From: an uncultured Clostridia bacterium
Lineage (GTDB): Bacteria > Bacillota > Clostridia > TANB77 > CAG-508
Length of the DNA: 35,765 nucleotides
Assembly (NCBI GenBank): GCA_944392675.1
Contig: CALXXK010000002.1
Coordinates: 1-35,765, forward strand
Direction of reading: 5' to 3'
How positions within the stretch are numbered: position 1 is the stretch's first letter; each line of letters begins with the position of its first letter. A program made the position numbers and the translations under genes. Below the pieces are notes generated by a model, which had not been told where the DNA came from, did not search any database, and saw only the letters and a list, made by a program, of their open reading frames with translations. Of this stretch, positions 6,001-28,552 are shown piece by piece.

Positions 6001-6137
6001 CATCCTACATCTTGTACGTGTGATTGATATTGTATATTTATTGCATTAGTATTATCATCTAATGCATAGCTAATTTTAAAACTTAATAATATTAAAATTG
6101 CTAATAATATACAAATAATAATTCTTTTTTTATACAT
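3036..6137 (-). CDS. Secreted ChW-repeat protein with a C-terminal M14 zinc carboxypeptidase-like domain (probable peptidoglycan stem-peptide hydrolase)
   Basis: It begins with the signal peptide MYKKRIIICILLAILILLSFKISYA. Three ~251-aa modules follow, each with 3 ChW repeats (Y[QR]xHVQD[IV]GWQ...AGT[ET]GQSKRIEAI) plus a ~105-aa beta-rich domain. The C-terminus carries HGFE, EVNPDGR, INRSW and DLHGW, matching the M14 HxxE...H zinc site. Confidence 0.8.
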   Translation of the reverse strand: MYKKRIIICILLAILILLSFKISYALDDNTNAINIQYQSHVQDVGWQAPKNNGAVSGTEGQSKRIEAIKIVTSNLPEGVKVKYQTHVGEIGWQPWKNEGEIAGTEGQSKRIEAIRIKLENTDKYSVQYRVHVQDIGWQNWCEDGETAGTEGQSKRIEAIQIKIVEKQVKGTINLDTNLENTTFNSDGIEINGWKLANVPNTSIETYLNGEKIQSKITYNADDNLVTKTKGYGIETNNAQPRFNIKIDTTNLETNTYNLELKLVDNQGNIIATKQSSLKLDKDTLIVQYQSHVQDIGWQAMKKNEEISGTTDQSKRLEAIKINVSNLPKGIELKYQVHVGKVGWQTWKNEGEIAGTEGQGLRLEAIRIKLENTDKYSIQYRTHVQDVGWQDWCEDGEISGTEGQSKRIEAIQIRIVEKQIKGTINIDTDLTNTIFDSDGIEINGWKMANNPNTSLETYLNGEKIQSEITYSEDNNLVTNTKGYGIESNNTQPRFNIKIDTTNLETNTYNIELKLVDNQGNIIATKQSSLKLDKDTLIVKYQSHVQDVGWQSIKKNGETSGTTEQSKRLEAIKIEIANLPEGVKVKYQAHVGEVGWQPWKDEGEIAGTTNQSKRIEAIRIKLENTDEYSIEYRAYVQDVGWQEWCSDGEYAGTTEESKRIEAIQIKIVKKSNTEKTTAFIDTKGSIHNTNGQIKGWVMSNVPNLTIKVFFDGAEQGNVSRVVRTDVLNSVKGYGGDITNPYPGFSLNFDFSKQSLGNHTIKVEIWSSDNRKLQELSSTINIINKIEYGTGEYGYSGAAIHGVAGGTSLRYYKYGSGPNVFFATFCVHGFEDSWAADGFILTCIADNLYNKLIAMQDKAIADKWTIYIFPEVNPDGRRMGYTNNGPGRLTLYSQAGRGIDINRSWQTGNSYTRYTDSRNYNGTAGFQAYEASALRDFMLSHKSTSGQTVVVDLHGWENQLIGNEQIAKYYKAYIPTCDTRNYGVYGNQYIVSWARQNLGAKATLVELPKANSPEHLNSMGLSDLYIYATLQMLREV
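4526..6032 (-). repeat. Two tandem 753-bp coding modules (251 aa each), with a third more diverged copy continuing to about 3770
   Basis: The protein period is exactly 251 aa (QYQSH at residues 36-40 and 287-291). The DNA landmark ctactttgttttgtagctat recurs at 5311 and 4558, an offset of 753 bp. By eye the two copies are roughly 90 percent identical. Confidence 0.8.
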
Positions 6138-6262
6138 ATTTAATCCAACACGCCCTTCCTTTTTTTCAAATTAATTTATTTACTATATAAAAGTGTTGTG
6201 ATAGATAGAAATATAATTTTTCTTCTTTAGATATTTTTACCAAATTTATATTTCTATTATTT

Positions 6263-7153
6263 TTACTCTTCTCCAAATTTATTTTCTGCTAAATCTTTTA
6301 AATATTTTCCATAGTCTGTTTTCATGAATTTTTGTGCTAGTTCTAATAATTGGTTAGAGTCTATCCATCCGTTTTTATATGCAATTTCTTCTGGGCAACA
6401 TACTTGTAATCCTTGTCTTTTTTCTATTGTTTGAACAAAACTTGCTGTTTCTAGTAATGCATCATGTGTTCCTGTATCAAACCATGTCATTCCTCTTCCT
6501 AATTTTTCAACTTTTAATTTTCCACGTTTCATATATTCATCATTTACAGATGTTATCTCTAATTCTCCTCTTGCTGAAGGCTTAACACTTTTTGCTATTT
6601 CAATAACTTCATTTGTATAGAAATATAATCCTGGTACTGCATAGTTTGATTTTGGATTTTCTGGTTTTTCTTCTATTGATATTGCTTTACCTTCTTTGTC
6701 TATTTCTACAACTCCATATGCTCTTGGGTCTTTTACATAATATCCAAAAATTGTTGCTTCATCTTCTCTGTTGTTTGCTGCAATAACTTTTTCTGCAAAA
6801 TGCTCTCCATAAAACATATTATCTCCTAATATCATTGCAACATTATCTTGTCCTATAAATTCTTCTCCTATTATAAAAGCTTCTGCTAATCCATTTGGCT
6901 TTTCTTGAACTTTATATTCAAAGTTCATTCCCCATTGTTTTCCATCACCTAAAAGTTCTCTAAATGTTACTATATCTCTAGGTGTTGATATTATTAATAC
7001 ATCTTTTATTCCAGCTTGCATTAAAACTGATAATGGGTAATATATCATTGGTTTATCATATACAGGCATTATTTGTTTTGATATTGCAAGTGTTAATGGA
7101 TACAATCTTGTTCCACTTCCTCCTGCTAAAATTATTCCCTTTCTATTTTTCAT
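6263..7153 (-). CDS. rfbA: Glucose-1-phosphate thymidylyltransferase (RmlA)
   Basis: [16 protein letters not shown] (the nucleotidyltransferase G-rich loop), [15 protein letters not shown] and [17 protein letters not shown] are present. I preferred the start at MKNRKG (ATG at 7153) with GGATGAG 4 nt upstream. The ORF-track alternative is 7162. Confidence 0.92.
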
Positions 7154-7225
7154 TTTTCTCATCCTTTCATATTTAGTTCTTCATAAATGAAGTTTAACAA
7201 CTCCAAAATTGTAATTATTTTTAAA

Positions 7226-8089
7226 TTATAATTTTCCTTCTTCTTTCAAATATCTTTTCAATCCATCTTCCCATTCTGGAACTTCTATTCCTTGTGCTTT
7301 TAATTTTTCTTTTGACATTTGAGAATTTTTAGGTCTTTTTGCTTGAGTAATTTTCATCATTTCTATATATTTTTCTGTTGAAACTGGATTTACTTGACAA
7401 ATAATTCCTGCATATTCAAAAATTGCTTTTGTAAAATCATACCAAGTTGTAAATCCTTCATTTGTTGCATGATATACTCCATAAGGTATTTTCTTTTCTA
7501 TTGCTTGTCCTATAAAGTTTGCTAAATCTTCTGCATATGTAGGCGAACCATGTTGATCTGATACTACATTTAACTCATCTTTTGTTTCTCCCAATTTTAA
7601 CATAGTTCTTACAAAATTATTTCCATCTCCATATAACCATGCCGTTCTAAATATATAATATTTATCTGTATTTTGTTCTATATATTCTTCTCCATGTAAT
7701 TTTGTTATTCCATATGCTGTAACTGGTTTTTTAGGATCATCTTCTTTATATTCTTTTGAAATATCTAAATCTCCTCCAAATACATAATCTGTACTTATAT
7801 GTACTAATATACTATTATTTTCTTTTGCTGCTTTTGCTAAATTTTTTGGTCCATCTGCATTTATCTTTTCTACTATTTCTCCTGCTGTTTCTGCTTTATC
7901 TACTGCTGTATATGCTGCACAGTTTATTATATATTCTGGTTTTACATTTTTTACGTATTCTGATACTGCTTTTTCATCTGTTATATCTAAGTCTGCAACA
8001 TCTGTGCATATTAACTCATTTCCTTTTTCTAGTCTTTTTCTTACTGATTTTGCAAGCATTCCATTTGCTCCTGTAATTAATATTTTCAT
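7226..8089 (-). CDS. rfbD: dTDP-4-dehydrorhamnose reductase (RmlD)
   Basis: MKILITGANGMLA is the Rossmann motif. STDYVFGG, YGITKLHGE (YxxxK) and the 287-aa length fit RmlD. A strong AGGAGGT RBS is present. Confidence 0.9.
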   Translation of the reverse strand: MKILITGANGMLAKSVRKRLEKGNELICTDVADLDITDEKAVSEYVKNVKPEYIINCAAYTAVDKAETAGEIVEKINADGPKNLAKAAKENNSILVHISTDYVFGGDLDISKEYKEDDPKKPVTAYGITKLHGEEYIEQNTDKYYIFRTAWLYGDGNNFVRTMLKLGETKDELNVVSDQHGSPTYAEDLANFIGQAIEKKIPYGVYHATNEGFTTWYDFTKAIFEYAGIICQVNPVSTEKYIEMMKITQAKRPKNSQMSKEKLKAQGIEVPEWEDGLKRYLKEEGKL

Positions 8090-8141
8090 TATTACACTTA
8101 CCTCCTAATTTCTTTTTTCATTTACATTAAAATACGTCTAT

Positions 8142-8170
8142 ATAATATCATTTAAATGAAAAAAGTACAA
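8142..8170 (-). promoter_or_regulatory. Possible sigma-A promoter for rfbD-rfbA (TTGTAC-17 nt-TATTAT)
   Basis: On the minus strand the -35-like TTGTAC (8165..8170) overlaps the terminator stem. A 17-nt spacer follows, then the -10-like TATTAT (8142..8147). Such matches arise easily by chance in AT-rich DNA. Confidence 0.3.
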
Positions 8171-8189
8171 GGGTTTCTTGTACTTTTTT
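8159..8189 (-). terminator. Rho-independent terminator downstream of the ChW-GH73 gene
   Basis: The minus strand reads AAAAAAGTACAAG-AAACC-CTTGTACTTTTTT, a 13-bp stem with a 5-nt loop that ends in a U-run. It starts 6 nt after the stop codon. It is the only clear intrinsic terminator in the window. Confidence 0.65.
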
Positions 8190-8194
8190 GTTAT

Positions 8195-11100
8195 TTAACC
8201 TATTGGTCTTGGTACTGCTGTTGCTGGCATATTTTCATAAACTGGAATTACAAATTCAAATTCCCCATTTATTAATCCATTTTCTTTATATTCATTTGAA
8301 ATTCTTGCACCTTCATCATTTGCAGCTCTAATATTTTGCATGTATTGATTTTCAAAATATGGTGCATTTACAACATTGAATTTTTGAAAATATAATGTTG
8401 TTTGTCCTTTTGATAAATATCCACTATTCAAGAACCTTGCACTGTCTAATATACATGTCTCTGGAGTAAACCAATGCTTATCATATGCATATTTTGCTCC
8501 ATTTTGTATTATTTCTGCATCTGTACTTCCTGTAGCTCCTATATTAAATAAATTATATACTATTCTTCCATTATATGTATAGCCATTTAATGCACTGCCA
8601 TCATTTCCTTGTTCTTGCAACATTCTTGATACCAAATGATATGGGCTAACATTATATGTTCTTGAACTTGAAAGTATTGCATTTATAATACTATCTGTAC
8701 TAGATGTTGGATATTTAGTTAAAAAACTACCTTCTATCATGTTAGCTATATCATCATATGTTCCTGCAATTGATGTTAAATCTTGGAATTGGAATATATA
8801 AGTCTCATCCAAACTATTCCTTGGATCCATCATATATGCAATAGCTTCTCTTGATGCTCTACGCCATCCTGTTCCATATTCTGTATTACCATTTATCCAC
8901 TGATTTGTATTTTGTGTTAAGCTTTTTGGTTGCCCATTAACTAAAACATCTTCTCCATTTAATACTGCATTCCAATCTAATCCTGTATATTTTATTGTTA
9001 AAATCCAATTTGGATGTTGATTTTGAAGTTGTTGTAATTTTTGTTTAAAACCTGGATATTTTGATTCATCCATGTTTGTAAAATTTGATGTATTTTTCTT
9101 TTTAAATTTTATTGCTATTCTTATTTGGATTGCCTGTATTGGTAGACTAGCTCCTGTTGTTCCGGCTGTTAAACCATCTGATACCCAATCTTGCCATCCT
9201 TGTCCTTGAACATATGCTCTATATTCTATTGAATATCCATCTAATCCTTCTAACTCTATACGTATTGCTTCTAATCCCAAATTTTGTCCTATTATTCCAG
9301 CTACTTCTCCATCTTTTACAGTATCTCTCCATCCAATGTCTTTAACATGTGGTGTATATTTTATATGTGCGTTTTCATCTGCATTTATTAAATTTATTTT
9401 TATTCCTTCTAAATTTGAACCTATTGTTCCTAAAGTTCCTTCATTGCTTACAGAATTTGTCCATGTGTTATTTACATATCCACTATATTGTACTTTTGGA
9501 ACTACTGTATCTTCTGTTTTTACTATTCTTATCTGAATTGCTTGTATTGTTGTACTTTGTCCTTCTGTTCCTGCTGTCATTCCATCTACCGCCCATGCTT
9601 GCCATCCTTGTCCTCTTACATATGCTCTGTATTCTACTGAATATCCTGGTATTCCTTCTAAATTAATTCTTATTGCTTCTATTGCTTTACTTTGTCCTGT
9701 TACTCCACCATCTGAACCATCTTGTACAGTACTCATCCATCCTACATTGCTTACATGAACTTGATATTTTATATGTGCTGTTTCACTTGTATTTACTAAT
9801 TCTATTCTTATTGCTTCTAGGTTATTGCTTCCTTCTATTCCTGCTGTTTCCCCATTATGTGCATGACTCATCCAACCTACTTTACTTACATGTCCACTGT
9901 ATGCTATTTCTGGTTTTGATGGTTGTAATTCTTCTGTTTTTACTATTCTTATTTGGATTGCCTGTATTGTTGTACTTTGTCCTGTTGTTCCCGCTGTTAT
10001 TCCTTCTGATACCCATTGTTGCCATCCTTGTCCTCTTACATATGCTCTATATTCTACTGAATATCCTGGTATTCCTTCTAATTTTATTCGTACTGCTTCT
10101 ATTGGTTTACTTTCTCCTGTTGTTCCTGCTTGTGAACCGTCTTGTACATAACTTTGCCATCCTACATTACTTACATGTGCTTGATATTTTATATGTGCTG
10201 TTTCACTTGTATTTACTAATTCTATTCTTATTGCTTCTAAGTTTTCACTTCCTACTACTCCTGCTGTTTCTCCATTATGTGCATGACTCATCCAACCTAT
10301 TCCACTTACATGTCCACTATATGCTATTTCTGGTTTTGATGGTTGTAATTCTTCTGTTTTTACTATTCTTATTTGGATTGCCTGTATTGTTGTACTTTGT
10401 CCTGTTGTTCCCGCTGTTATTCCTTCTGATACCCATTGTTGCCATCCTTGTCCTCTTACATATGCTCTATATTCTACTGAATATCCTGGTATTCCTTCTA
10501 ATTTTATTCGTACTGCTTCTATTGGTTTACTTTCTCCTGTTGTTCCTGCTTGTGAACCGTCTTGTACATAACTTTGCCATCCTACATTACTTACATGTGC
10601 TTGATATTTTATATGTGCTGTTTCACTTGTATTTACTAATTCTATTCTTATTGCTTCTAAGTTTTCACTTCCTACTACTCCTGCTGTTTCTCCATTATGT
10701 GCATGACTCATCCAGCCTATTCCACTTACATGCCCACTATACGCTATTTCTGGTTTTGATGGTTGTAATTCTTCTGTTTTTACTATTCTTATTTGAATTG
10801 CTTCAATTGTAGTGCTTTGACCTGTTGTTCCTGCTGTTACTCCATCTGATACCCATTGTTGCCATCCTTGATTTTTTACATATGTTCTGTATTCTACTGA
10901 ATATCCTGTAATTCCTTCTAATTTTATTCGTACCGCTTCTATTGGCTTACTTTCTCCTGTTGTTCCTGCTTGTGAACCATCTTGTACATAACTTTGCCAT
11001 CCTACATTACTTACATGTGCTTGATATTTTATATGTGCATTTCCACTTGCATTTACTAAACTAATTTTTAAAGCTTCTAAATCATTCCCACTTCCTGCTA

Positions 11101-12070
11101 ATCCTGCTGTTTGTTCACTTTGAACAGAGTTCATCCATCCTACATTTCCTACATGGGCTTGATATGTTACCTGTGGTTCTTGCGTTTTTGCCTGCATTAA
11201 TAGATTTTGATCTGCTTCAGGAATTTGTTCTTCTTTCACAGTATTATCTACTACTTCATTCTCTGTAGCATTTTCTTCTTTATTTTCTGCATTATCATCT
11301 TTGTTTGCTTCTTCTTCATATACTTCAAATTTTACAGATATTGTTGTTCCTGCTAATTTACAATCTTCATCTTTTTCATCAAATATAATTAAATCTTCAT
11401 TCTCACCTATATTAGCATTTGTAGTATCAATAACAATTGCTGTTTTGTCTTCATTTAGACTTATACATGGCTCTCTTGTTTCATCTGATGAAATCAAATT
11501 AAATTTTGCATCTTCACCTATATATAACTTACTTTCTGGATTAAAAGCACTTTTTAAAATTTCTGGTAATTCTATTTCTTGTGTTTTTCCTTTAAGTATT
11601 TTTATGTTTTCAGTTTCTAGACTTGTATTTTTAATATGTACCTCTTCTAATTTTTCTAATTCATCTAATATTGCATAATTTGTAAAATTTCCTATTAAAT
11701 TAATCTTTTGCAAATTAGTTAAATTTTGAATTCCTTGTAAACTAATTCCTTCTTTATCTTCTTCTAGAGGTATTTCTTCGTTTTGTTCTTGTCTTGTAGC
11801 TACTTCTTCTTTATTTTTTTCTAAAAAATCTAATTCTAAATCTGTTATTTCTTCTATTTCTAAATCAGATAGTATTCCATCTTTATCAGTATCATAATTT
11901 TCTAATATATATTGACCTAATCTTTCATTTTCAAAACTATTTGCTGTTATTTCTTCTGCATTGATTTTTTGTGTTTCTTCTACTGCATTTACTATGTTTA
12001 ACATTGCTGGTAAATAAGATGAAAGTATTACAAAGATTATTAAAATACTTATAATTTTATTTTTTCTCAT
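8195..12070 (-). CDS. Secreted ChW-repeat protein with a C-terminal GH73-like N-acetylglucosaminidase (autolysin-type) domain and an N-terminal EF-hand/LRR-like module
   Basis: I chose the start at MRKNKIISIL (ATG at 12070, AAAGGAA upstream); the ORF-track start at 12100 has no RBS. There are 15 ChW repeats in 5 triplets, at about 9100..11170. The C-terminus carries RMLQEQGNDGS, VYNLFNIGATG and TLYFQKFN, resembling the catalytic Glu and YNxFGIGA motifs of GH73 enzymes. Confidence 0.75.
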   Translation of the reverse strand: MRKNKIISILIIFVILSSYLPAMLNIVNAVEETQKINAEEITANSFENERLGQYILENYDTDKDGILSDLEIEEITDLELDFLEKNKEEVATRQEQNEEIPLEEDKEGISLQGIQNLTNLQKINLIGNFTNYAILDELEKLEEVHIKNTSLETENIKILKGKTQEIELPEILKSAFNPESKLYIGEDAKFNLISSDETREPCISLNEDKTAIVIDTTNANIGENEDLIIFDEKDEDCKLAGTTISVKFEVYEEEANKDDNAENKEENATENEVVDNTVKEEQIPEADQNLLMQAKTQEPQVTYQAHVGNVGWMNSVQSEQTAGLAGSGNDLEALKISLVNASGNAHIKYQAHVSNVGWQSYVQDGSQAGTTGESKPIEAVRIKLEGITGYSVEYRTYVKNQGWQQWVSDGVTAGTTGQSTTIEAIQIRIVKTEELQPSKPEIAYSGHVSGIGWMSHAHNGETAGVVGSENLEAIRIELVNTSETAHIKYQAHVSNVGWQSYVQDGSQAGTTGESKPIEAVRIKLEGIPGYSVEYRAYVRGQGWQQWVSEGITAGTTGQSTTIQAIQIRIVKTEELQPSKPEIAYSGHVSGIGWMSHAHNGETAGVVGSENLEAIRIELVNTSETAHIKYQAHVSNVGWQSYVQDGSQAGTTGESKPIEAVRIKLEGIPGYSVEYRAYVRGQGWQQWVSEGITAGTTGQSTTIQAIQIRIVKTEELQPSKPEIAYSGHVSKVGWMSHAHNGETAGIEGSNNLEAIRIELVNTSETAHIKYQVHVSNVGWMSTVQDGSDGGVTGQSKAIEAIRINLEGIPGYSVEYRAYVRGQGWQAWAVDGMTAGTEGQSTTIQAIQIRIVKTEDTVVPKVQYSGYVNNTWTNSVSNEGTLGTIGSNLEGIKINLINADENAHIKYTPHVKDIGWRDTVKDGEVAGIIGQNLGLEAIRIELEGLDGYSIEYRAYVQGQGWQDWVSDGLTAGTTGASLPIQAIQIRIAIKFKKKNTSNFTNMDESKYPGFKQKLQQLQNQHPNWILTIKYTGLDWNAVLNGEDVLVNGQPKSLTQNTNQWINGNTEYGTGWRRASREAIAYMMDPRNSLDETYIFQFQDLTSIAGTYDDIANMIEGSFLTKYPTSSTDSIINAILSSSRTYNVSPYHLVSRMLQEQGNDGSALNGYTYNGRIVYNLFNIGATGSTDAEIIQNGAKYAYDKHWFTPETCILDSARFLNSGYLSKGQTTLYFQKFNVVNAPYFENQYMQNIRAANDEGARISNEYKENGLINGEFEFVIPVYENMPATAVPRPIG
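9961..10800 (-). repeat. Two tandem 420-bp units with 416/420 identical positions, flanked by diverged copies at about 9541..9960 and 10801..11220
   Basis: I compared 9961..10380 with 10381..10800 directly. The only differences are at offsets corresponding to 10295/10715, 10313/10733, 10322/10742 and 10376/10796. Both units encode the identical 140-aa ChW triplet. Confidence 0.95.
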
Positions 12071-12105
12071 GTTTAATATCATTCCTTTCAAAAGGTACAT
12101 ATATT

Positions 12106-15100
12106 TTATTTTTCTACTAATTTAATTTGAATTGCTTCTATTCTTTTTGATTCTCCTGTTGTTCCAGCTATTTCTCCATTTGACTTCCAGTCTTGCCATC
12201 CTATATCTTGTACATAGGCCCTATATTGAACATCGTATTTTGTTGTATCTTTTAATTCTATTCGAATTGCTTCTACTCTTTTTTCTTCTCCTGTTGTTCC
12301 AGCTATTTCTCCGTTTGATTTCCAGTCTTGCCATCCTACATCTTGTACATGTACTCTATATGATATTTCATTATTTTCTATATTTTGCAATTCAATTTTT
12401 AATGCTTCTATTCTTTTTGATCTATCTACTGTTCCTATTGTTTCTCCATCAACACCTTTATAAGACCAACCTATATCTTGTATATGTCCACTATATAGAA
12501 CTTTTGCAGTTTCACTAGGAGTTTTTGAACCTAAATAATTTTTCTTCTGTAGCTTTATTTCAATTGCTTCTATTCTTCTACTTTGGTCTGTTGTTCCTGC
12601 CATTTGTCCATTTGATTTCCATTCTTGCCATCCTATACCTTGTACATATACTCTATAGTCTACTACATATTCTGAATTTGTTGGAACATTTATTTCTATT
12701 GCTTCTATTCTTTTTGACTGTCCTGTTGTTCCTGCTATTTCTCCATTTGATTTCCAGCCTTGCCATCCTATATCTTGTACATGTACTCTATAAGATAAAT
12801 CTATATTTTCTAAGTTAGTTCCTAAATCAATTTTAATAGCTTCTATTCTTTTGCTTTCTTGCATAGTTCCTAATGTTTCACCGTCTTTTGCTGTTCCTGA
12901 CCATCCAATATCTTGTATATGTGCAGTATAATTTATGTTGCTATTTTGAACACCAGATGTTGTTCCTAAATATCTTGTTTTTTCTATTAATATTTCAATT
13001 GCTTCTATTCTTTTTCCTTGTCCTTCTGTACCTGCTGTTTCTCCGTTTTTTACCCAGTTTGTCCATCCTATGTCTTGTACATGAACTCTATATGTAACAG
13101 AATATTCATCCATTCCTTCTAATTTTATTTGAATTGCTTCTGTTCTTAGACCTGTTATACCAGCTGTATTTCCGTCACCTTTCCAATCCATCCATCCATA
13201 ATCTTGAACATGTACTCTGTATTTTATATGTTGATTTTCTGTTGCGTTTGGTAATGTTATTTTTATAGACTGTACTGCTAATCCTTTTCCAACTGTTCCA
13301 GATGTTTGATTTTGCTTTTTCCAAGTATCTTCCCAACCTTCATTTTGTATGTATGTTGTATATTGTAAACTGTCTGTTGTGTTATATCTTGTATTCATAT
13401 AAGCTACTCTTTGACTTACCCAGTTTTTTAAATAATCTATTTCTCCTTCATATGTAGCTTTTGGTGTATGTGATGTTGGAAGTTCTCCAGTTGTTCCTAT
13501 TACATCCCATCTTACAAAGTTCATATCTATAGATTTTTTCATATTTTCTATATAATTGTCTATCTTAGTTGTTGCTGTATTAAATACTGATTTTATATTA
13601 TTTTCATATTCTTCATTTAATAATTTAACAAATTGTTTATTTCTATATAGTTGTGTATACCAATTTGTTTTTGAAAATCTATATTTTTCTATATTTAAAG
13701 AGTAATCTACTGAAGGATTTGAACCTGCTGCTGTGTAGTTATGATATCCTAAAGCTGTATCATTATCCCATAATGGCCCTATATGAAGTACATCATTTGG
13801 TCCATCTTTATATACATATGTGCTACTAATAAATCTGTCTGGGTCTTCTGCAAACTCTATTAAGAAATAATATTTTAAAAATGATTCTATATCAATTACT
13901 TTGCTTATTTCGTTCCAATTTGGATTTTCTGCATATATTAAAGACTCAAATTGATTTATTGCGTTTTCAAATTCTTTTATTGCTTGTGTATGTTCTTGTG
14001 TTCCTTCATCTGAAACAGATTCTTTTACAACAAATGTCATCCCTGATATTTTACTTGTAAATTTATATTCTTCCTTCCATCCGTATGCTGCATCCATTTC
14101 GCATAATAGTCCTTTAGGATTTTCTAAATTCACTCTTGCTTCTCCTATGTCTACTTTATCACATACATAATAATTACCTAAAAATTCGCCATTTATGTAT
14201 AGATCCACAAATTGACCTCTTATATTAGCATTTGAACCTATTTCTTTTTGTAAATCACACATTAATGCATTTTTTACTAATGTTCTGTCTATATGATTTG
14301 CAAGTAATATCCATTTTTTACTTTTTCCACTTAATCCAAGTAGATTTTCTTTTTTGTCAAATTTTATTTGGTATGGTTTTTTATCATAATTCCAAGTTGA
14401 ATTTCCTCTACCTTTTAACTCAATTTCTTTATTGGTTATATTATATTCTGCATTAGATGCACCTACTACTTGTAATCTTGCTGGATATTTTTCATCTTTT
14501 GAACCACCATTTACTTCTTCTAATGTTGCATCATCTAAATTTATACATATACTTGGTATATCTGATTGCATTACTTTTATTGTATATTGCTTATTATCTG
14601 TAAATGTAATTGTTAATTGGTCACTAACTGAAAAGTCATTAGTTATGATTTTATTTTGTAAATCTACACTTCCAGAACTTATATTTGCAATATCTACTCC
14701 ATATGTGTAATTTATATTAACATTTGTTATATCTATTGCATTTGGTAAAAATAAATAATATATTCCATTTTTTAAGTATGTATTTATTTTATATCCATTT
14801 ATTTCTATTCCTGCATTAAATTCAACATTTGAAACTTGTTCTGCTTCTATATCTGTTGATTTATTTTCTATTACTTTATTTTCTTCTTGTATTTCTTTAT
14901 CTTCAGTAATTACTTTTTCTGTCTGATTTGTTTCTTCTGTATTATCTTCTTTTTCTTCTAAATCTTCAATTATGTTATCTTCTGTTTCATTTTGTATGGT
15001 ATTTTCGTTTTTTTCAAAAATATTGTTTGTTGTTTCTTCTGTTGTATTACTTCCTTGAGTATTATTTACATCATTATTGGTTACGTTTTCTTTTTGTTCT

Positions 15101-15243
15101 GTATTATCTGTAATATTATTTGTTATTTCTTTGTCAGTTGTATTATCATTAATATTCTCATTTGCTAATGCTACCATTGGTATTAATATATTTAATACTA
15201 ATATTAGTGTAATAAGAAAAGCTAAAATCTTGATTTTTTTCAT
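12106..15243 (-). CDS. Secreted CotH kinase-like domain protein with 9 C-terminal ChW repeats
   Basis: The signal peptide is MKKIKILAFLITLILVLNILIPMVALA, followed by an N/E/T-rich linker. The central region carries ELKGRGNSTWNYDKKPYQIKFDKK...KKWILLANHIDRTLVKNAL...FVDLYINGEFLGNYY, typical of CotH (PF08757-type). ChW triplets occupy about 12109..13375. Confidence 0.8.
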   Translation of the reverse strand: MKKIKILAFLITLILVLNILIPMVALANENINDNTTDKEITNNITDNTEQKENVTNNDVNNTQGSNTTEETTNNIFEKNENTIQNETEDNIIEDLEEKEDNTEETNQTEKVITEDKEIQEENKVIENKSTDIEAEQVSNVEFNAGIEINGYKINTYLKNGIYYLFLPNAIDITNVNINYTYGVDIANISSGSVDLQNKIITNDFSVSDQLTITFTDNKQYTIKVMQSDIPSICINLDDATLEEVNGGSKDEKYPARLQVVGASNAEYNITNKEIELKGRGNSTWNYDKKPYQIKFDKKENLLGLSGKSKKWILLANHIDRTLVKNALMCDLQKEIGSNANIRGQFVDLYINGEFLGNYYVCDKVDIGEARVNLENPKGLLCEMDAAYGWKEEYKFTSKISGMTFVVKESVSDEGTQEHTQAIKEFENAINQFESLIYAENPNWNEISKVIDIESFLKYYFLIEFAEDPDRFISSTYVYKDGPNDVLHIGPLWDNDTALGYHNYTAAGSNPSVDYSLNIEKYRFSKTNWYTQLYRNKQFVKLLNEEYENNIKSVFNTATTKIDNYIENMKKSIDMNFVRWDVIGTTGELPTSHTPKATYEGEIDYLKNWVSQRVAYMNTRYNTTDSLQYTTYIQNEGWEDTWKKQNQTSGTVGKGLAVQSIKITLPNATENQHIKYRVHVQDYGWMDWKGDGNTAGITGLRTEAIQIKLEGMDEYSVTYRVHVQDIGWTNWVKNGETAGTEGQGKRIEAIEILIEKTRYLGTTSGVQNSNINYTAHIQDIGWSGTAKDGETLGTMQESKRIEAIKIDLGTNLENIDLSYRVHVQDIGWQGWKSNGEIAGTTGQSKRIEAIEINVPTNSEYVVDYRVYVQGIGWQEWKSNGQMAGTTDQSRRIEAIEIKLQKKNYLGSKTPSETAKVLYSGHIQDIGWSYKGVDGETIGTVDRSKRIEALKIELQNIENNEISYRVHVQDVGWQDWKSNGEIAGTTGEEKRVEAIRIELKDTTKYDVQYRAYVQDIGWQDWKSNGEIAGTTGESKRIEAIQIKLVEK

Positions 15244-15332
15244 AGAACATCCTCCTTTTTTATAGTTATTATAAATGTAAAATATAAACTTTTTAAATTT
15301 TTAACCTGAATAGTTATAAATTATAAAATGTC

Positions 15333-17723
15333 TTAATATCTTTTATTACCTACATTTAAATCTACTCTACCATTAACGCCTGATACTGAACCATCACTTG
15401 TATATTGCCATATAGCATAATTATATTTAAAATCTGTTGGTTTTGATGTACTTCCTGTGTAATGTGCTACCCAAATGTCATATAAATTCAAATAAGAAAA
15501 TTCTAAATTATTATAAAACCAATCTCTACTTGCATACACCATTGGTGTATATCCAAGTACTTGAACTCTACTACAAAATCCAACTATGGCATTTGTTCTA
15601 GTTCTTTTATCTAATAAATCTGCTCTTCCTGGAGCTGAACCTTCTTTTCTTGCTCCTGAATCTTCAGTATCTATAACAATTGGATAATCTATTGTAATAT
15701 CATGCATATGTAATTGATCAATAACCCATTGAGCTTCTTCTTGTCCCTCTGATGAACTAATAGCTTGTGAGAAGAAATATACCCCAACTGGTATTCCTAC
15801 TGATTTAGCACCTTTTATGTTATTTAAAAATTGTGAATCCATTACTATTTTTCCTGTTCTATATCCTCTATATCCTATTCTTATTATTGCAAATTGAACT
15901 CCTGATGATTTTACTCCTTGCCAATTAATTGATCCATTATGTTCTGAAACATCAATTCCTTTATAGCTTCTATAATATTTTGGTACAATTCTAATTTTTA
16001 TAGCTTCAATTCTTTTTGATTCTCCTACAGTACCTGCAGTTTCTCCATCTATGTACCAACCACTCCATCCATAATCTTGAATATGTACTTGATATTCTAC
16101 TGTGTAGTCATCTAACCCATTTAATTTTATTTGAATTGCTTCTACTCTTTTTGATTTACCTTCTGTTCCAGCTGTTTTTCCATTCATTACCCAAGCTTGC
16201 CATCCTACGTCTTGCACATGTGTTCTGTATTGAATTGAGACATTACTAGGAACATCTTCTAAATTTATTCTTATGGCTTCTATTCGTTTACTCTGTGCTT
16301 CTGTTCCTGCCAAAAATCCTTCTGTAACAGCATCTTGCCATCCTATATCTTGTACATGTACTTGGCAATTTACTTCTGGTTCTAAAAGTTCTCTTCCTAT
16401 TTCTACAATTCTAATTTGTATTGCTTCTATACTTCTAGATTGTCCTGTGGTTCCTGCTGTTTCTCCGTTCTTTTTCCATTTTTGCCATCCATATCCAGAA
16501 ACATGAACTCTATATTCTATACTATATCCTTCTATATTCTCTAGTTTTATTCTTATGGCTTCTATTGCTTTACTCTGACCTGTTGTTCCTGCTTTTGCTC
16601 CATCTTTTTGGTAGTTTACCCATCCTACTTTTGCTACATGAACTTGATAACTAATATGTGCATTTTCATTTGCATCTTTTAAATTAATTTTTATTGCTTC
16701 TATACTTTTGGATTGTACTGTTGTCCCAGATATGTCATTTTCATTTACTTTAGATTGCCATCCAACTTTTCCTACATGTGATTGATATTGAACTTCTGGC
16801 TCTTTTATTAAATTTTCTGATTTTACAATTCTTATTTGAATAGCTTCTATCATTAAACTTTGTTCTGTTGTTCCTGCTATTTCTCCATCATTTTTCCATT
16901 TTGTCCATCCATCGCCTATTACATAAACTCTATATTCTATACTGTATCCTGGCATGTTAAGCAAATTCATTTTTATAGCTTCTATCCTTTTGGATTTTCC
17001 TTCTGTTCCTGCCAATTCTCCGTTACTTTTCCAACCTTGCCATCCTATATCTTGTACATATGCTTGATATTGAATACCATTTGTTTCATTTGAATTTGTT
17101 AGCTCTAAATTATATGCTTCTATTCTCTTTCCACTACCTGGTGTACCAAGAATCTCACCATTACCTACATAACTTGTCCATCCATAATCTGCTATGTGAG
17201 TTCTATATTGTATACTTACTTCTTCTTGCTCTATTGACATTTGTTCTATTTGATTTTCAATTTTCTGTGTTTCAATTTCATTTGTTTTATTTTCATCTAT
17301 TGCATTTTCATCTATTGTATTTTCTTCTATTTCATTTGATATAGTATTTGTATTATTTGTAATATTATTATTTATACTATTTGTTGTATTATTTATAGTA
17401 TTATTTCCATTGTTATTAGTTGTATTATTATTTGTTATATTATTGCTAGTATTGTTATTTTCAGAACTAGTATTATTGTTATTTGTATTATTTGTTTGAT
17501 TATTGCTTGTGTTACTACTGGTATTGTCAATGTTACTAGTATTTGTAGTGTTATTTGTGTTTTCTTCTATATCATTCACTTTTACTTCATTTTCTTCTTT
17601 ATTTGATACTATACTATTTTTTATTATTTCACTTTCTGCATAAGAACTTAAAACAAATGCTCCTAATATGTTGCTAATAAGAATTATTAATATTATACAT
17701 GCTAAATATCTTTTTTTGTTCAT
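15333..17723 (-). CDS. Secreted ChW-repeat protein with a C-terminal GH25 muramidase (lysozyme) domain
   Basis: It has a signal peptide, an Asn/Thr-rich low-complexity linker and 9 ChW repeats (about 15990..17215). The C-terminus carries GIDVSEHNGSINW, AIIRIGY, VGVYFFS, IVIDTED and IWQYTSDGSVSGVNGRVDLN, which are GH25 hallmarks. Confidence 0.85.
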   Translation of the reverse strand: MNKKRYLACIILIILISNILGAFVLSSYAESEIIKNSIVSNKEENEVKVNDIEENTNNTTNTSNIDNTSSNTSNNQTNNTNNNNTSSENNNTSNNITNNNTTNNNGNNTINNTTNSINNNITNNTNTISNEIEENTIDENAIDENKTNEIETQKIENQIEQMSIEQEEVSIQYRTHIADYGWTSYVGNGEILGTPGSGKRIEAYNLELTNSNETNGIQYQAYVQDIGWQGWKSNGELAGTEGKSKRIEAIKMNLLNMPGYSIEYRVYVIGDGWTKWKNDGEIAGTTEQSLMIEAIQIRIVKSENLIKEPEVQYQSHVGKVGWQSKVNENDISGTTVQSKSIEAIKINLKDANENAHISYQVHVAKVGWVNYQKDGAKAGTTGQSKAIEAIRIKLENIEGYSIEYRVHVSGYGWQKWKKNGETAGTTGQSRSIEAIQIRIVEIGRELLEPEVNCQVHVQDIGWQDAVTEGFLAGTEAQSKRIEAIRINLEDVPSNVSIQYRTHVQDVGWQAWVMNGKTAGTEGKSKRVEAIQIKLNGLDDYTVEYQVHIQDYGWSGWYIDGETAGTVGESKRIEAIKIRIVPKYYRSYKGIDVSEHNGSINWQGVKSSGVQFAIIRIGYRGYRTGKIVMDSQFLNNIKGAKSVGIPVGVYFFSQAISSSEGQEEAQWVIDQLHMHDITIDYPIVIDTEDSGARKEGSAPGRADLLDKRTRTNAIVGFCSRVQVLGYTPMVYASRDWFYNNLEFSYLNLYDIWVAHYTGSTSKPTDFKYNYAIWQYTSDGSVSGVNGRVDLNVGNKRY

Positions 17724-24459: not shown

Positions 24460-26124
24460 CTAGGAACACAAATGATAATTTATTTTTGGTACGTCTGTAT
24501 CTAATCTATAATTTCTATTATAATATGGGTCTCCTCTGTTGATTACTTCTGCCCATCTTTTTACAAATAACTCATATTCTTTTGCAAATCTTTGTTGTTT
24601 TTCACTATTTTCTGTATCTTCTCCTCTAGATTTTGATTCATAATGATATCCATATGCGAATGGATTATATACAATTAATAAGCCTTTTTTTCTTACTTTC
24701 AAACAAAAATCTACATCATTAAATGCTACTGCTAATTTTTCATCAAAACCTAGTAATTCTTCATATAATTCTTTTTCTACCATAAAACATGCTGCTGTAA
24801 CTGCACTTAGATTTTGAACGATATTTATATAGTCATCTTCTTTAAAATCTTTTTCTTGTATTTCTCTTGAGCGGTGTCCTGCTAATCCTCTAACTCCAAT
24901 AGTCACACCTGCATGTTGTATACTTTTATCTGGGAAATATAGTTTTATACCGCAAATTCCTACATCTTTTCTTTGTGTATACATTAGCATTTGTTCAATC
25001 CAATCTGGTGTTAAAATTTCTATATCATTATTTAATAATATTACATATTTACCTGTTGCTTTTTCTACTCCAAAATTTACTATTGCTGAATAATTAAAAT
25101 ATTTTATATCAAATTTTTCTACTCTAATTTTTGAGTTTTGTTCTATTATTCTTTGGTAGTATTCAAAAGTTTCTTTTTCTTCACTATTATTTTCTACTAT
25201 TACCACTTCATAATTTTGGTATGTGGATTTTTCTACTGATTGAATTAATTTTTGTAAATCCTCTATATGGTCTTTATTTGGTACAACTAAAGATACTTTA
25301 GGTTCACCTATAATTTCATATTGTATTTTGTAATTTCCTTTGTACATTCCATCTTCTATTGATTTATATGGTATTTCTTTACGTTCTAAATATTGTTTTA
25401 ATATTATTTTTTGTGTTTCAGTATCTATATGCTTGTCTTCTATTAAGTCATGATATAATATCCTTGGAATGTGTATAATTTCTTTAGTTTTTTCACTTAT
25501 TCGTAATAATAAGTCATAATAAATATCTTTATTTAAATTTTCTAATATTTTTGGATATCTTTTTAAAAATTTTGTTTTTATTGCAATCATATTTCCAATA
25601 TAATTTTTAGATAATAATGTGTCAATAGCAAAGTCAGGTTTAAATCTTGGCTCTTGTCTTTTGCCATTAATTTTAAAATCATTATCACTATAATATAATA
25701 TTCCATCATGTCCTTCTATTGTTTTAACTATATCATATAAAGCAAATGATGCTAATTCTATGTCTTTTCCTATAAAAATTGTATAATCACTATTATTGTT
25801 TTCTAAAATATTGCTTGTCCCATTTTTGATTATTGTCCATCTAGAATATGTTTGATTATTTATACTTTGAATAATTTGTTCTTGTTCTTCTTCTAAAACT
25901 ATAGCAAAATCTATATTTTGACATGATTCATATTTTTTTTGTATATTTAGTTGTTTTTCATTTGGTTCATTTACTTCTATCCATTCTGCGTATTCGTCTA
26001 CAACTGCTTTTCCATATCTAATGTAGTTAACAGATGCTTGTATTAATCCTTTTATTCCTTTTTGTTTTGTTCTTTGTATAATTGCTTTTAGTATCTTCTT
26101 TAATTTTGCTAATAAAGATTTCAT
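24460..26124 (-). CDS. Two-domain GT2 glycosyltransferase with a degenerate N-terminal GT-A-like half and a canonical C-terminal GT2
   Basis: The C-terminal half carries VSLVVPNKDHIEDLQKLIQSVEKSTYQNYEVVIVENNS, ILLNNDIE and NDVDFCLK...YHYESKSRG. The N-terminal half carries FAIVLEEE..SINNQTYSRW. RBS is AAGGAAGG. Confidence 0.8.
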   Translation of the reverse strand: MKSLLAKLKKILKAIIQRTKQKGIKGLIQASVNYIRYGKAVVDEYAEWIEVNEPNEKQLNIQKKYESCQNIDFAIVLEEEQEQIIQSINNQTYSRWTIIKNGTSNILENNNSDYTIFIGKDIELASFALYDIVKTIEGHDGILYYSDNDFKINGKRQEPRFKPDFAIDTLLSKNYIGNMIAIKTKFLKRYPKILENLNKDIYYDLLLRISEKTKEIIHIPRILYHDLIEDKHIDTETQKIILKQYLERKEIPYKSIEDGMYKGNYKIQYEIIGEPKVSLVVPNKDHIEDLQKLIQSVEKSTYQNYEVVIVENNSEEKETFEYYQRIIEQNSKIRVEKFDIKYFNYSAIVNFGVEKATGKYVILLNNDIEILTPDWIEQMLMYTQRKDVGICGIKLYFPDKSIQHAGVTIGVRGLAGHRSREIQEKDFKEDDYINIVQNLSAVTAACFMVEKELYEELLGFDEKLAVAFNDVDFCLKVRKKGLLIVYNPFAYGYHYESKSRGEDTENSEKQQRFAKEYELFVKRWAEVINRGDPYYNRNYRLDTDVPKINYHLCS

Positions 26125-26170
26125 TATAACCTTCCTTTTCTCCCTTTTACCTTCAATTAAATTTATACAT

Positions 26171-26419
26171 GTTACAATTTACACCTAAAATTTTTATATC
26201 AACCTAAAGTTATATTATAATATTTTATGAAATTAAATGTGCAAATGGAGGAATATTACAAATTCTTACATTATCAAATAGGAGGATCTCAAATCTTGCT
26301 TTGAGAGGTGCCTGTTTTAGAATGTTAGAATTTGTATATTCCGCAATGCCAGCCATTTAATGAATAAAATATTATAATATAACTTTAGGTTATTTTTGAA
26401 AATAATTGTAAATTGTAAC
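26171..26419. repeat. Nested imperfect palindrome of ~250 bp (MITE/ERIC-like element, long RNA stem-loop or invertible segment) in the largest intergenic gap
   Basis: The perfect 28-bp inverted repeat 26201..26228 (AACCTAAAGTTATATTATAATATTTTAT) is the reverse complement of 26364..26391. An outer perfect 13-bp pair lies at 26171..26183 and 26407..26419. Inner pairs are TTAAATG/CATTTAA, GGAATATTACAAATTCT/AGAATTTGTATATTCC, and the apex hairpin CTCAAA-TCTTGC-TTTGAG, which is centred exactly at 26296. Confidence 0.85.
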
Positions 26420-26434
26420 TATAAATTCTTAAAA

Positions 26435-28552
26435 TTAATGTTTTAGTATTTTTTTCAAAAATCTTTTTATTCTACGTAAAAAGCGATAAATTGCTCCATG
26501 ATTATCTTGGTAAATTGGTTCTTGCTTTACTTGTTCTAAAGAAACTTCTTGTGATTCTTTACTTGCTTTAAATGGTTCTTTTTTATACATTTGTTTTAAT
26601 TCTGGAATATCTTTATAATCTGTTTCTAGCATATCTTTTACAGCTTTTAAAAATTGTTCAAATCCTCTTTCTAATGGAAAGTCTTTCATATAAGTTTGTC
26701 CAAATTCTGACATTTTTTTGCATTCTTCTGGGTTGTCTAATAAGTGGACAATTGCACTTGCTATTGCTTCTGGTGTTGGCTCTGCTAATAATACTCCTTC
26801 ATCTGGTAAATCATAAAGATTATTTTCTCTATATAATTCTACTACTGGAAGTCCTGCAGCCATCATTTCAAATGGTATTCTTGATGGGTTTGATGAACTC
26901 ATACAAATACCTACTTTACATTTATTGTATAATTTATTACATTCTTGTGTTGGAATTATATGCAAATTCTCACATTCGAATTCAAAATTAGCTTCTGCAC
27001 TAGAACCATATAAATATATTTTTACATCTGGTCTTAATGCTTTTACTAATTTTAAAGCTTTTAGACCTATAAAGTCACATCTTCTTGGTTTTTCTGGTTG
27101 ATATACAAAACAAATTGCATTTTCTTTTTCTACATTTTTTAGTGGTTTATATACATTTAAATCTGCTCCAAAATCAAAATATTGTGAAGGTGTGTTAAAT
27201 TCGTGTTGCATTTTGTATGATAACCATTTTCCTATTGTAACTGGTAAATATCCAAATCTATATGAATTTTCTGTAATAAGATATTGGTCTCCCATTGGGA
27301 AAAACCATGGTTCAAAATCTTGTATAAAATATGCCTTTTTCTTAGCTGGTAATTTTCTAACAAAATCTATTGTTTGCCATCCTGTTGCAAACATCAAATC
27401 ATAGTCTTTTTTAATGTCAAAACCTACATATACACCTGCATCACATTTTTCATACCAATTATTTATCTTGTCTTTAACCATTTGAGGTGTTGAAACTCCG
27501 TCTTCTTCTACATAAATGTCACATTCATATCCTGCTTTTAATAAAGCATTTACATTTTGAATTATAGTTCTATGTCCTCCTGAACCTTTTCCTGGATGTG
27601 GCATTACCCATGCTATTTTCTTTTTTCCATTATCTTTTTCCATATTTTCTCCTTTTTTTGGTAATAGTGGTCTCATAAGGTCTCTTCTCATTTCTTGTTT
27701 TTCTTTAATTTCTGGTGGTAATTCATATAAACTTGATATTTCATCCTGTATTTTACATATTTCATTATATTCTATTTCTGCTTTTACATCTGTACTTACT
27801 GAACTTCCATGCTTTCTATAATAATTTAAAGCATTTGTATTCCAACTTATTTTTCCGTCTTTTAAAATATTATAATAAATATACCAATCTCCTGCTACTT
27901 TAAAATTTCCCGCTTCTTCAAATATTTTTGAGTAATCTTTTTTCCTCCAAATAACACTTGATACGTTTAATATAGTATTTGTAACACTTAAATGTTTTAT
28001 AATTTCTTCTTTTCCTGTCCATATATATGACTTGTTCCATTCTCCTGTTCTACACATATCATACCAATCATCACATCTAGGGCGTATTAAATTATTTTCT
28101 CCATCTATTTTGGCTGATTCACAATAAGAAAGTACCATTTCTGGGTCATCAAATGGTTTTATTAATTCTTCTACAAAATTATTTGCCGCACTATCATCTG
28201 CTTCAGCTATCCATATAAAATCTCCTGTTGCCAAGTCAAATCCTTTTTTCCATTGTTTAAAAACACATCCTCCACTATTTTTTTCATTTATTACAAATTG
28301 TATTTTTAATTCTGGATAATCTTTTTTTATTTCTTCTATTTTTTTATTGATTACTTCTACGCTATTATCTGGTGAACAGTCATCTAAGATAATTAATTCA
28401 TATATTGGATATGTTTGTAATAGTATTGAATCTATTCTTTCTATTATATAATTTGCATAATTATAATTTGGTACTATTACACTTACTTTTTTTGGATTTT
28501 CAATTTTCAACTTTTTCTTTGGCTTTTTGTAGATATTAATTTTTTTATTCAT
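26435..28552 (-). CDS. Bifunctional glycosyltransferase with an N-terminal GT2 domain fused to a C-terminal GT-B (GT4/WsaF-like) domain; candidate chain-extending enzyme
   Basis: The N-terminus carries VSVIVPNYNYANYIIERIDSILLQTYPIYELIILDDCSPD and IAEADD. The C-terminal half begins KKKIAWVMPHPGKGSGGHRTI and continues to PFEMMAAGLPVV, the GT-B EX7E-region style. Confidence 0.7.
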   Translation of the reverse strand: MNKKINIYKKPKKKLKIENPKKVSVIVPNYNYANYIIERIDSILLQTYPIYELIILDDCSPDNSVEVINKKIEEIKKDYPELKIQFVINEKNSGGCVFKQWKKGFDLATGDFIWIAEADDSAANNFVEELIKPFDDPEMVLSYCESAKIDGENNLIRPRCDDWYDMCRTGEWNKSYIWTGKEEIIKHLSVTNTILNVSSVIWRKKDYSKIFEEAGNFKVAGDWYIYYNILKDGKISWNTNALNYYRKHGSSVSTDVKAEIEYNEICKIQDEISSLYELPPEIKEKQEMRRDLMRPLLPKKGENMEKDNGKKKIAWVMPHPGKGSGGHRTIIQNVNALLKAGYECDIYVEEDGVSTPQMVKDKINNWYEKCDAGVYVGFDIKKDYDLMFATGWQTIDFVRKLPAKKKAYFIQDFEPWFFPMGDQYLITENSYRFGYLPVTIGKWLSYKMQHEFNTPSQYFDFGADLNVYKPLKNVEKENAICFVYQPEKPRRCDFIGLKALKLVKALRPDVKIYLYGSSAEANFEFECENLHIIPTQECNKLYNKCKVGICMSSSNPSRIPFEMMAAGLPVVELYRENNLYDLPDEGVLLAEPTPEAIASAIVHLLDNPEECKKMSEFGQTYMKDFPLERGFEQFLKAVKDMLETDYKDIPELKQMYKKEPFKASKESQEVSLEQVKQEPIYQDNHGAIYRFLRRIKRFLKKILKH

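Follow-up and report, generated by a model that had tools for sequence, protein, structure and literature searches.

In Neisseria, the Correia elements (CREE/NEMIS) bring about a duplication of TA and contain an IHF site. IS1397 and ISKpn1 target the loops of palindromic units; both are autonomous members of the IS3 family and produce a defined duplication. A perfect RNA duplex of 28 bp is a standard substrate of RNase III. The inverted repeats of Correia elements are cut by RNase III, and these elements can carry promoter or terminator activity (PMC10969869). QMITE2 of Coxiella burnetii, which serves here as the typical prokaryotic MITE, is ~190 bp long, has 23-29-bp terminal inverted repeats around a 113-145-bp core, folds as a transcript at about -113 kcal/mol and has 7-9-bp direct repeats (PMC10969869). 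REPINs are mobilised by RAYT transposases and consist of REPs, units of 20-40 bp tagged with GTAG or CGTC, and come with a linked RAYT gene (PMC3116915, PMC3337134, PMC3733652). The 310-bp intergenic gap at 26125..26434 of a 35,765-nucleotide stretch of DNA from an uncultured Clostridia bacterium (contig CALXXK010000002.1; the window hereafter, meaning the whole stretch analysed) lies between two glycosyltransferase (GT) genes of a polysaccharide cluster. It very probably holds one copy of a non-coding, non-autonomous foldback repeat of the miniature inverted-repeat transposable element (MITE) type, and the best reading of this copy is as a member of an undescribed, MITE-like repeat family of a well-known kind.

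Members of the family are ~250-275 bp long, with poorly conserved outer arms and a highly conserved 181-bp core that bears 28-bp perfect inverted repeats. The family is spread over intergenic sites in the host and its closest relatives, with presence or absence between close relatives, and it also decays to internally deleted short forms. As it is scattered in the genome and missing at the same spot in relatives, the element was considered an ordinary small mobile insertion and not a dedicated switch. The parts of the window copy are given below, with the strand where one applies.

26171..26419: full foldback element, 249 bp, with termini GTTACAAT... and ...ATTGTAAC, whose GTTAC/GTAAC ends recur in other copies; the profile search aligns 26173-26419.
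26149..26424 (approximate): segment of ~276 bp that is extra with respect to relatives, from spacer comparison; edges uncertain by several bases.
26160..26167 and 26420-26427: flanking 8-bp inverted repeat AATTTATA / TATAAATT, just outside the 13-bp pair.
26171..26183: outer terminal inverted repeat, left, 13 bp, GTTACAATTTACA, perfect pair with 26407-26419.
26407..26419: outer terminal inverted repeat, right, 13 bp, TGTAAATTGTAAC, perfect pair with 26171-26183.
26184..26205: left outer arm, alpha, with diverged homologues in copies L012, L062 and L039a and in contig loose ends.
26387..26406, plus strand: right outer arm, beta, stem base AGGTT followed directly by ATTTTTG, which makes a terminator-like hairpin with a T-run.
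26201..26228: left arm of the perfect 28-bp inverted repeat, exact reverse complement of 26364-26391.
26364..26391: right arm of the perfect 28-bp inverted repeat, exact reverse complement of 26201-26228.
26206..26386: conserved core, 181 bp, AAAG...CTTT, the unit repeated at >=80% identity in the community.
26229..26363: centre, 135 bp, an imperfect palindrome with conserved asymmetries, 32.6% G+C, missing in the short-form relative L014.
26288..26305: apex hairpin CTCAAA (26288-93)-TCTTGC-TTTGAG (26300-05), with a loop that differs among copies.

The initial annotation had described the gap as the seat of perfect 28-bp and outer 13-bp inverted repeats with further inner pairs concentric on 26296, and a repeat finder and shuffled sequences bore this out, the 28-bp arm pair having zero matches in shuffles even with up to three mismatches allowed. 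The repeat finder pairs 26201-26256 with 26336-26391 and 26257-26293 with 26300-26336, and since the nested pairs are joined throughout, 26201-26391 is a single imperfect palindrome centred at ~26296. The 8-bp pair AATTTATA/TATAAATT is either a palindromic target context or the outermost layer of the element. The centre was rightly called richer in G+C, at 32.6% against 14.0% in the arms, 26.9% in the window and 23.5% in the gap. The predicted fold of the gap has -91.1 kcal/mol on the minus strand (z = -9.8 against shuffles) and -97.7 kcal/mol on the plus strand (z = -12.0).

The window sequence is matched by chicken-gut metagenome contigs, and the Logan contigs of eight chicken-gut metagenome runs were aligned to the region for depth. 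Over the core (26206-26386) the depth was ~7-35-fold above host level in seven of the eight runs (X14, X20, X1, X12, X2, X3 and X9), rising from 8.3 to 57-218 in X14, from ~9 to 163 in X20 and from 5 to 175 in X1. Run X6, with the lowest host depth of the eight, had no rise over the core. The edges of the depth step coincide exactly with 26206-26210 and 26377-26389. The extra contigs are 80-99% identical, have a depth close to that of the host contig itself, and leave for unrelated flanks at ~26206-26216 and ~26361-26393; one foreign flank, ...TATATACACAGCCA|AAGTT, was found again in three different samples. Copies were assigned to one genome by inference from equal contig depths. A single genomic copy had been named beforehand as an argument against mobility, and the depth over the core together with the six further loci described below shows that the sequence is repeated.

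Short contig islands of very high depth were also seen within both GT genes, at 26616-26649 and 25834-25901 (231x and 89x against ~7x in X14 and X12; 20-35x against 9.6x in X20), and these are short words common to other abundant sequences of the samples.

Full or partial copies were recovered at six other loci, which makes seven loci in all as sequence. A 43-codon pseudo-ORF (open reading frame) within the element, used as bait, led to L012 and L013, and a degenerate inverted-repeat pattern led to L043, L062 and the L039 copies (one ENA assembly). All recovered copies are intergenic, and the cores of L012, L013 and L043 are 88-91% identical to that of the window copy.

L012: flanked by bacA on one side and a small convergent gene on the other.
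L013: upstream of a gene of the gerA family, at a distance of 70 nt.
L043: core of full length, with convergent genes on either side.
L062: internally deleted copy of 127 bp.
L039, 3275-3336, 7448-7555 and 11871-11925: three decayed pieces within 12 kb.

One of the L039 fragments is a solo 28-bp repeat fused to GTAAC and adjoining an ordinary terminator. The density of the family in this contig (three per 12 kb) is far above that in the window (one copy in 35.7 kb).

Further searches bounded the family. A second metagenome scan returned 65 loci, of which 62 were chance AT-rich matches, and a profile search of 725 kb of retrieved loci gave no further copies. The core pattern in metagenome and viral collections and the inverted-repeat patterns in viral contigs gave no useful match, and BLAST against phages and plasmids gave chance matches only. 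A scan of a genome collection with the 22-mer AACCTAAAGTTATATTATAATA found one chance match in an archaeal metagenome-assembled genome (MAG), the AACCT part of the query being locus-specific and the scan thus blind to other copies. Rfam gave zero hits at the gathering threshold and only chance matches at E up to 10. The pseudo-ORF (26225..26356, minus strand) is a called gene in two other copies (P0001 and P0002) and meets a stop at codon 6 in L043; a small protein or toxin encoded by the element was rejected on account of this interruption. Because the ORF is broken in L043 and Rfam holds no matching family, the repeat is regarded as non-coding, with no earlier description as an RNA. Its range appears to be limited to a narrow lineage.

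Six of the ten contigs bearing the downstream GT gene (L004-L007, L009 and L010) start inside the palindrome, 65-161 nt upstream of the start of that gene (26189-26285). Since assemblers break at the repeat, MAGs of the host will be fragmented at every copy.

Two occupied sites could be compared with relatives. At the window locus the gap is conserved with <=4 single-nucleotide polymorphisms (SNPs) in four other spanning assemblies. In L017-L020 (GT 82% identical) and L099 (GT 76% identical) the gene order is the same and the spacer is only 29-30 nt; L017-L020 have TAA-GAATAAAAGATAAAGAAAAGGAAGGTTATA-ATG, with a near-identical ribosome-binding site (RBS), and L099 has a 29-nt spacer with a similar purine-rich RBS. 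The comparison of this site in related strains, asked for in the initial annotation, therefore found the element missing from the GT-GT spacer of both the 82% and the 76% relatives, and from the length of these spacers ~276 bp (roughly 26149-26424) are extra here. At the bacA site, L016 has flanks near-identical to those of L012 and lacks 264 bp. Its empty site, TGAGCGTTAAGTGTGTTTC-GATT-GAAACACACTTAACGCTCA, is a perfect 19-bp stem with a 4-nt loop, and in L012 the same 19-bp stem encloses the element within the loop. A third relative at this site, L014, has a centre-less form made of outer arms and a 48-bp palindrome resembling the 28-bp repeat.

The L014 palindrome (8199-8247, also at the end of L015) is perfect and spacerless, TCCGAAGTTATATTGTAAATTTTA|TAAAATTTACAATATAACTTCGGA, with A8 before it, and resembles a strong terminator for a minus-strand gene of 84 aa. 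The stem of the hairpin that encloses it differs from that of L016 on both sides, with compensation. In L100, a 78% relative, the GT-GT spacer is occupied by another hairpin, 56 nt long (2853-2908), whose perfect stem measures 20 bp and whose loop is TTGTAACTCCAACTGC; the arm resembles the 23-nt repeat of the family at ~75%, and its membership is uncertain. As it is inserted before and not after the shared TAAGAAT motif, it is an independent event in the same short spacer. Downstream of the GT gene of L100, a 351-bp gap (4618-4968) contains a G+C-richer imperfect palindrome (TTTTTTAGAAGTCACTCCCAAC ... GACTTTCTAAAAAA) unrelated to the element. The bacA relatives L021-L030 (94% identity), which represent a neighbouring species, have an unrelated classical bidirectional terminator, AAAAAAATAGCAATATA-GTCAATGGA-TTATATTGCTATTTTTTT, ~30-80 nt past the bacA stop, and the repeat family is absent from the surrounding 10 kb.

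The copies share their outer design. The window copy, L062 and L039a all end in GTTAC...GTAAC, and L012 has GTTAT...GTAAC. Alpha and beta, the outer arms, are mutually homologous and diverged; alpha is poorly conserved among copies, and its last five bases, AACCT, pair with AGGTT at 26387-91. In five copies a T-run stands on the beta side directly past the stem base.

Window copy: AGGTT-ATTTTTG, confined to the plus (antisense) strand.
L012: GGGC-TTTTTAT (GGGCTTTTTAT).
L043: CGGC-TTTTTAA (CGGCTTTTTAA).
L062: ATGG-TTTTTTAC (ATGGTTTTTTAC).
L014: CGGA-CTTTTTTTT, on its minus (other) strand (CGGACTTTTTTTT).

On the sense strand of the window copy no U-tract follows the stem. The 4-5 bp at the stem base vary among copies and yet stay complementary (AACCT/AGGTT, AGCCC/GGGCT, AGCCG/CGGCT, TCCG/CGGA and ACCA/TGGT). 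RNAalifold on four sequences gave 75 pairs, four with compensatory double changes and one broken, and the single-sided changes produced G.U on the plus-strand version in four of four cases. With a chance of about 1 in 16, this is a weak hint that pairing matters on the plus strand, whether in RNA or in single-stranded DNA.

In L062, a direct repeat of 8 bp without mismatch, ATATGGAT, abuts both the GTTAC and the GTAAC terminus. L012 is compatible with an imperfect duplication of 4-6 bp (AATG/AATT or CAATGG/CAATTG; empty site CGATTG), and no target duplication was found in the window copy, L039a or L039c. A TA duplication of the IS630 type was rejected, as it fits the window core only and neither L012 nor L043, and so was IS608-like targeting of TTAC, which is merely part of the symmetric terminus.

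The core does not have a constant orientation within the family. Relative to the alpha and beta arms it lies one way in the window, L062, L043 and one X14 contig, and is reversed in L012 and L039a; the arms of L062 and L039a align in the same frame (score 28 against 12), with the cores reversed. The two configurations are established mainly by L062 against L039a, together with the side of the T-run. An inversion of the core between the window and L012 on the basis of the outer arms alone was dropped, the arm alignment being ambiguous. From the two orientations it follows that the segment between the 28-bp repeats was flipped, or that the core entered either way, at least once in the history of the family.

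Among the three readings put forward in the initial annotation, that of an insertion like a MITE, ERIC or Correia element is thus the one upheld, by the multi-copy core, the other loci, and the empty orthologous spacer and bacA site. Of the features listed for MITEs in PMC10969869 and PMC3049150, the element has a length below 500 bp (249-276 bp), terminal inverted repeats, multiple copies, empty sites in relatives, AT-richness, an intergenic location and a strongly folding transcript, and it is non-coding; for two further features, a regular target duplication and a matching parent transposase, the picture is less clear. Several points weigh against a MITE-like insertion. Target-site duplication is inconsistent, being clear in just one of the five copies with both termini, and no parent transposase or insertion sequence with matching ends was found in the phage, plasmid and viral collections. 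The ends are less conserved than the core, the opposite of the usual pattern of a MITE bound by a transposase. Since the copy numbers were derived from contigs of metagenomes, relatives living in the same community may account for some of the copies; no more than seven loci are available as sequence, and every functional statement about the RNA is inferential.

On the MITE-like reading, the copy would have landed in a spacer originally of ~30 nt between two co-transcribed GT genes and become fixed in the host lineage as a tolerated passenger of a tight operon spacer. The element would be polar, with a G+C-containing stem base and a T-run on one side, here the plus (antisense) strand, so that the minus-strand operon transcript would read through a ~250-nt hairpin without a U-tract. 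As the T-run is antisense and the sense hairpin has no U-tract, read-through of the operon is probably preserved. The 28-bp perfect duplex of the hairpin would be a likely RNase III substrate, and an outward sigma-A-like motif facing the downstream gene may serve as a lead.

The resemblance to described systems is one of design. QMITE2 is approached by the 28-bp repeat around a 135-bp centre, by the one copy with an 8-bp direct repeat and by the many truncated, REP-like copies of both families. It differs in having no sequence similarity and in its host, here a Firmicute-like gut anaerobe; the present element has extra outer arms with GTTAC/GTAAC termini of their own, most of its copies are without direct repeats, and its ends are less conserved than its core. 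Like Correia elements, it is a short foldback repeat between or inside transcription units, presumably co-transcribed, with inverted repeats that by analogy may be RNase III substrates; unlike them it follows no TA rule, and there is no sequence relationship. SPRITEs from the pneumococcal repeat study (PMC3049150) are likewise AT-rich Firmicute repeats with a stem followed by a uridine-rich tract and an enrichment near 3' ends and between convergent genes, with a target duplication that is not determinable either, but they are an 18-bp duplex with very simple ends, as compared with 250 bp, a 181-bp core and nested repeats here, and share no sequence similarity. With REPINs the element has in common its extragenic position, two inverted units in one long hairpin, the usual lack of a target duplication and persistence in a lineage; its termini are GTTAC/GTAAC with no GTAG or CGTC tag at the ends, and no RAYT was seen in the ~36 kb at hand. 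The position of L012, exactly in the loop of a prior hairpin with a 19-bp stem, and the 8-bp palindrome flanking the window copy recall IS1397 and ISKpn1, although loop targeting is clear only once here and L062 and L039a are not in palindromes. Judged by sequence, the element is an analogue of Correia and ERIC elements and not a member, being unrelated to them and to any Rfam family.

The alternative that survives best, and which is held as a tentative possibility, is that the family consists of mobile polar intrinsic terminators like SPRITEs, whose stem and T-run end transcription from one side. Copies would then survive only where they are harmless or useful, and the window copy would block antisense (plus-strand) transcription into the upstream gene. 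The T-run straight after a G+C-containing stem base, seen in the window copy (on its plus strand) and in L012, L043, L062 and L014, agrees with this, as do the covariation of the stem base, the location of L012 and L043 between convergent genes, where the L012 element replaces a disrupted native hairpin, and the centre-less L014, a perfect 24-bp hairpin plus T8. The window T-run is antisense, and the operon-internal hairpin of L100, if it belongs to the family, has only a pyrimidine-rich tract on that strand. A consensus terminator scan nevertheless reports none, the loop and stem exceeding its limits; a stem of 90 bp has little in common with a canonical terminator, the copies seen are very few, and the orientation statistics are too small, since between convergent genes either orientation ends one gene.

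The second reading of the initial annotation, taken as a claim that the element is kept as a cis-acting operon RNA, was judged rather unlikely. The minus-strand stem would be an RNase III site or a roadblock that uncouples the upstream export and backbone genes from the downstream GT, ChW and rml genes. The sense RNA does fold at -91 kcal/mol (z = -9.8), its stem containing the perfect duplexes of 28 bp and 13 bp, and the element is a fixed feature of every assembly that spans it (<=4 SNPs). Four base pairs have changed on both sides in a compensatory way from copy to copy, and RNase III cuts Correia elements in their inverted repeats (PMC10969869). Against these stand the occurrence of the same core in settings of another kind, such as the space between convergent genes or the region ahead of a gene of the gerA family, which means that the element was not built for this operon, and the 30-nt spacer that suffices in relatives. 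In addition, the G.U pairs that arise from single-sided changes belong to the plus strand rather than the sense strand, and of the two strands the plus one has the more stable fold. RNase III processing between the two halves of the cluster would be a plausible consequence of transcribing the 28-bp perfect duplex along with the operon.

The idea of an anti-Shine-Dalgarno role for the CCUCC motifs of the minus-strand RNA is weak, and sequestration of the RBS by them was dropped as a reading. Both motifs are present, as GGAGG at 26247-51 and 26281-85; the second is GGAGA in most copies, and the RBS region is unpaired in the predicted fold.

It was considered unlikely that the 181-bp core is a unit of its own that enters the tips of existing hairpins, such as older copies of the foldback or native terminators, in whichever orientation and with no regular target duplication. 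Such entry would be structure-directed, for example by hairpin-tip cleavage with copy-in repair or by single-strand transposition of the HUH type, and a succession of such insertions would give rise to nested palindromes and disperse a polar terminator/promoter cassette. It would explain why the core is better conserved than the ends, the locus-specific complementary bases abutting the core, the insertion of L012 in a loop, the centre-less L014 and the two core orientations relative to the arms.

Very improbable is the third reading, an invertible switch in which inversion of the 135-bp centre between the two 28-bp repeats would turn a promoter round. The motifs relevant to it are these.

26296..26323, plus strand: promoter-like motif TTGCTT-16-TAGAAT, present as TATAAT in L012 and L013 and as GATAGT in L043.
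26214..26243 (26243 to 26214), minus strand: outward sigma-A-like motif TGCACA-18-TATAAT, facing the downstream GT and kept in all long copies; a consensus match only.

The plus-strand motif was correctly noted before. The TATAAT boxes described as facing inward in both 28-bp arms are there too, but they read outward as well as inward, because ATTATAAT, present in each arm, is self-complementary. Altogether 11 sigma-A-like sites were found against 6.2 +/- 2.6 expected, which is no enrichment over shuffles in such AT-rich DNA. A perfect 28-bp inverted repeat around a short segment with promoter-like motifs both ways does resemble DNA invertons of the fimS and hin type, and the core occurs in both orientations relative to the arms (window, L062 and L043 against L012 and L039a). 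At the window locus a switch is not supported: five assemblies and the contigs of six runs have one orientation with no strand-changing joints, although contigs can hide rare variants and low-level flipping may have escaped them. Invertons need a nearby dedicated recombinase and both orientations, and neither was found here, no transposase or recombinase domain being detected in the 19 large ORFs scanned in the 35.7-kb window. The plus-strand promoter motif is not conserved, L043 lacking it, and one old RecA-type flip or either-way insertion of the core explains both family configurations equally well.

A chance or locally grown palindrome without relatives, for instance a quasi-palindrome perfected by template switching, has practically no probability: templated repair could yield bases just outside the core that are complementary in every copy yet copy-specific, but the 88-91% identical copies at other loci refute it and shuffles give zero expectation for the repeat.

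The gap is the sole large one of its cluster, the other minus-strand gaps measuring 4-125 bp in the ORF table, as had been stated. Every gene of the window is on the minus strand, and the polysaccharide cluster around the gap includes a Wzt-type ABC exporter, a methyltransferase, several GT2 genes, rmlA/C/D and four large ChW-repeat proteins. The immediate neighbours, from the ORF tables and Pfam, are listed with the RBS.

26435..28552, minus strand: upstream gene, GT2+WsaF-like glycosyltransferase.
26130..26144 (26144-26130), minus strand: region GGGAGAAAAGGAAGG with the RBS of the downstream GT, free of base pairing in the predicted fold.
24460..26124, minus strand: downstream gene, GT2 glycosyltransferase.

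The RBS core, GAAAAGGAAGGTTATA-ATG, is identical in the element-free 82% relative. The four ChW-repeat proteins are encoded in succession at 3036-17723 and are large and of secreted type, with 9-14 ChW repeats each and different fused domains (M14 peptidase, CotH kinase-like, GH25 lysozyme); their genes sit downstream of the GT genes, interspersed with rml genes. GerA, DpaA and CtsR/McsB/ClpC are encoded at other repeat-bearing loci, and from these the host appears to be a low-G+C, spore-forming, Clostridia-like bacterium.

For annotation, the gap would thus be described as an insertion of selfish repeat DNA and not as a regulatory device designed for the polysaccharide cluster. The finding adds an undescribed foldback repeat family from an uncultured low-G+C lineage of the chicken gut, one that breaks the metagenome assemblies of its host, as the ends of six of the ten contigs inside it illustrate. 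The features most worth attention are the insertion in a hairpin loop, the polar T-run and the two core orientations; the clean pair of occupied and empty sites at a terminator hairpin loop, together with the one-sided T-run, makes the family a natural case for target choice and for the filtering of orientation in operons. Should cleavage of the sense transcript occur within the 28-bp duplex, or should the outward promoter prove to be active, strains with and without the insertion would differ in the stoichiometry of their surface-polysaccharide genes.

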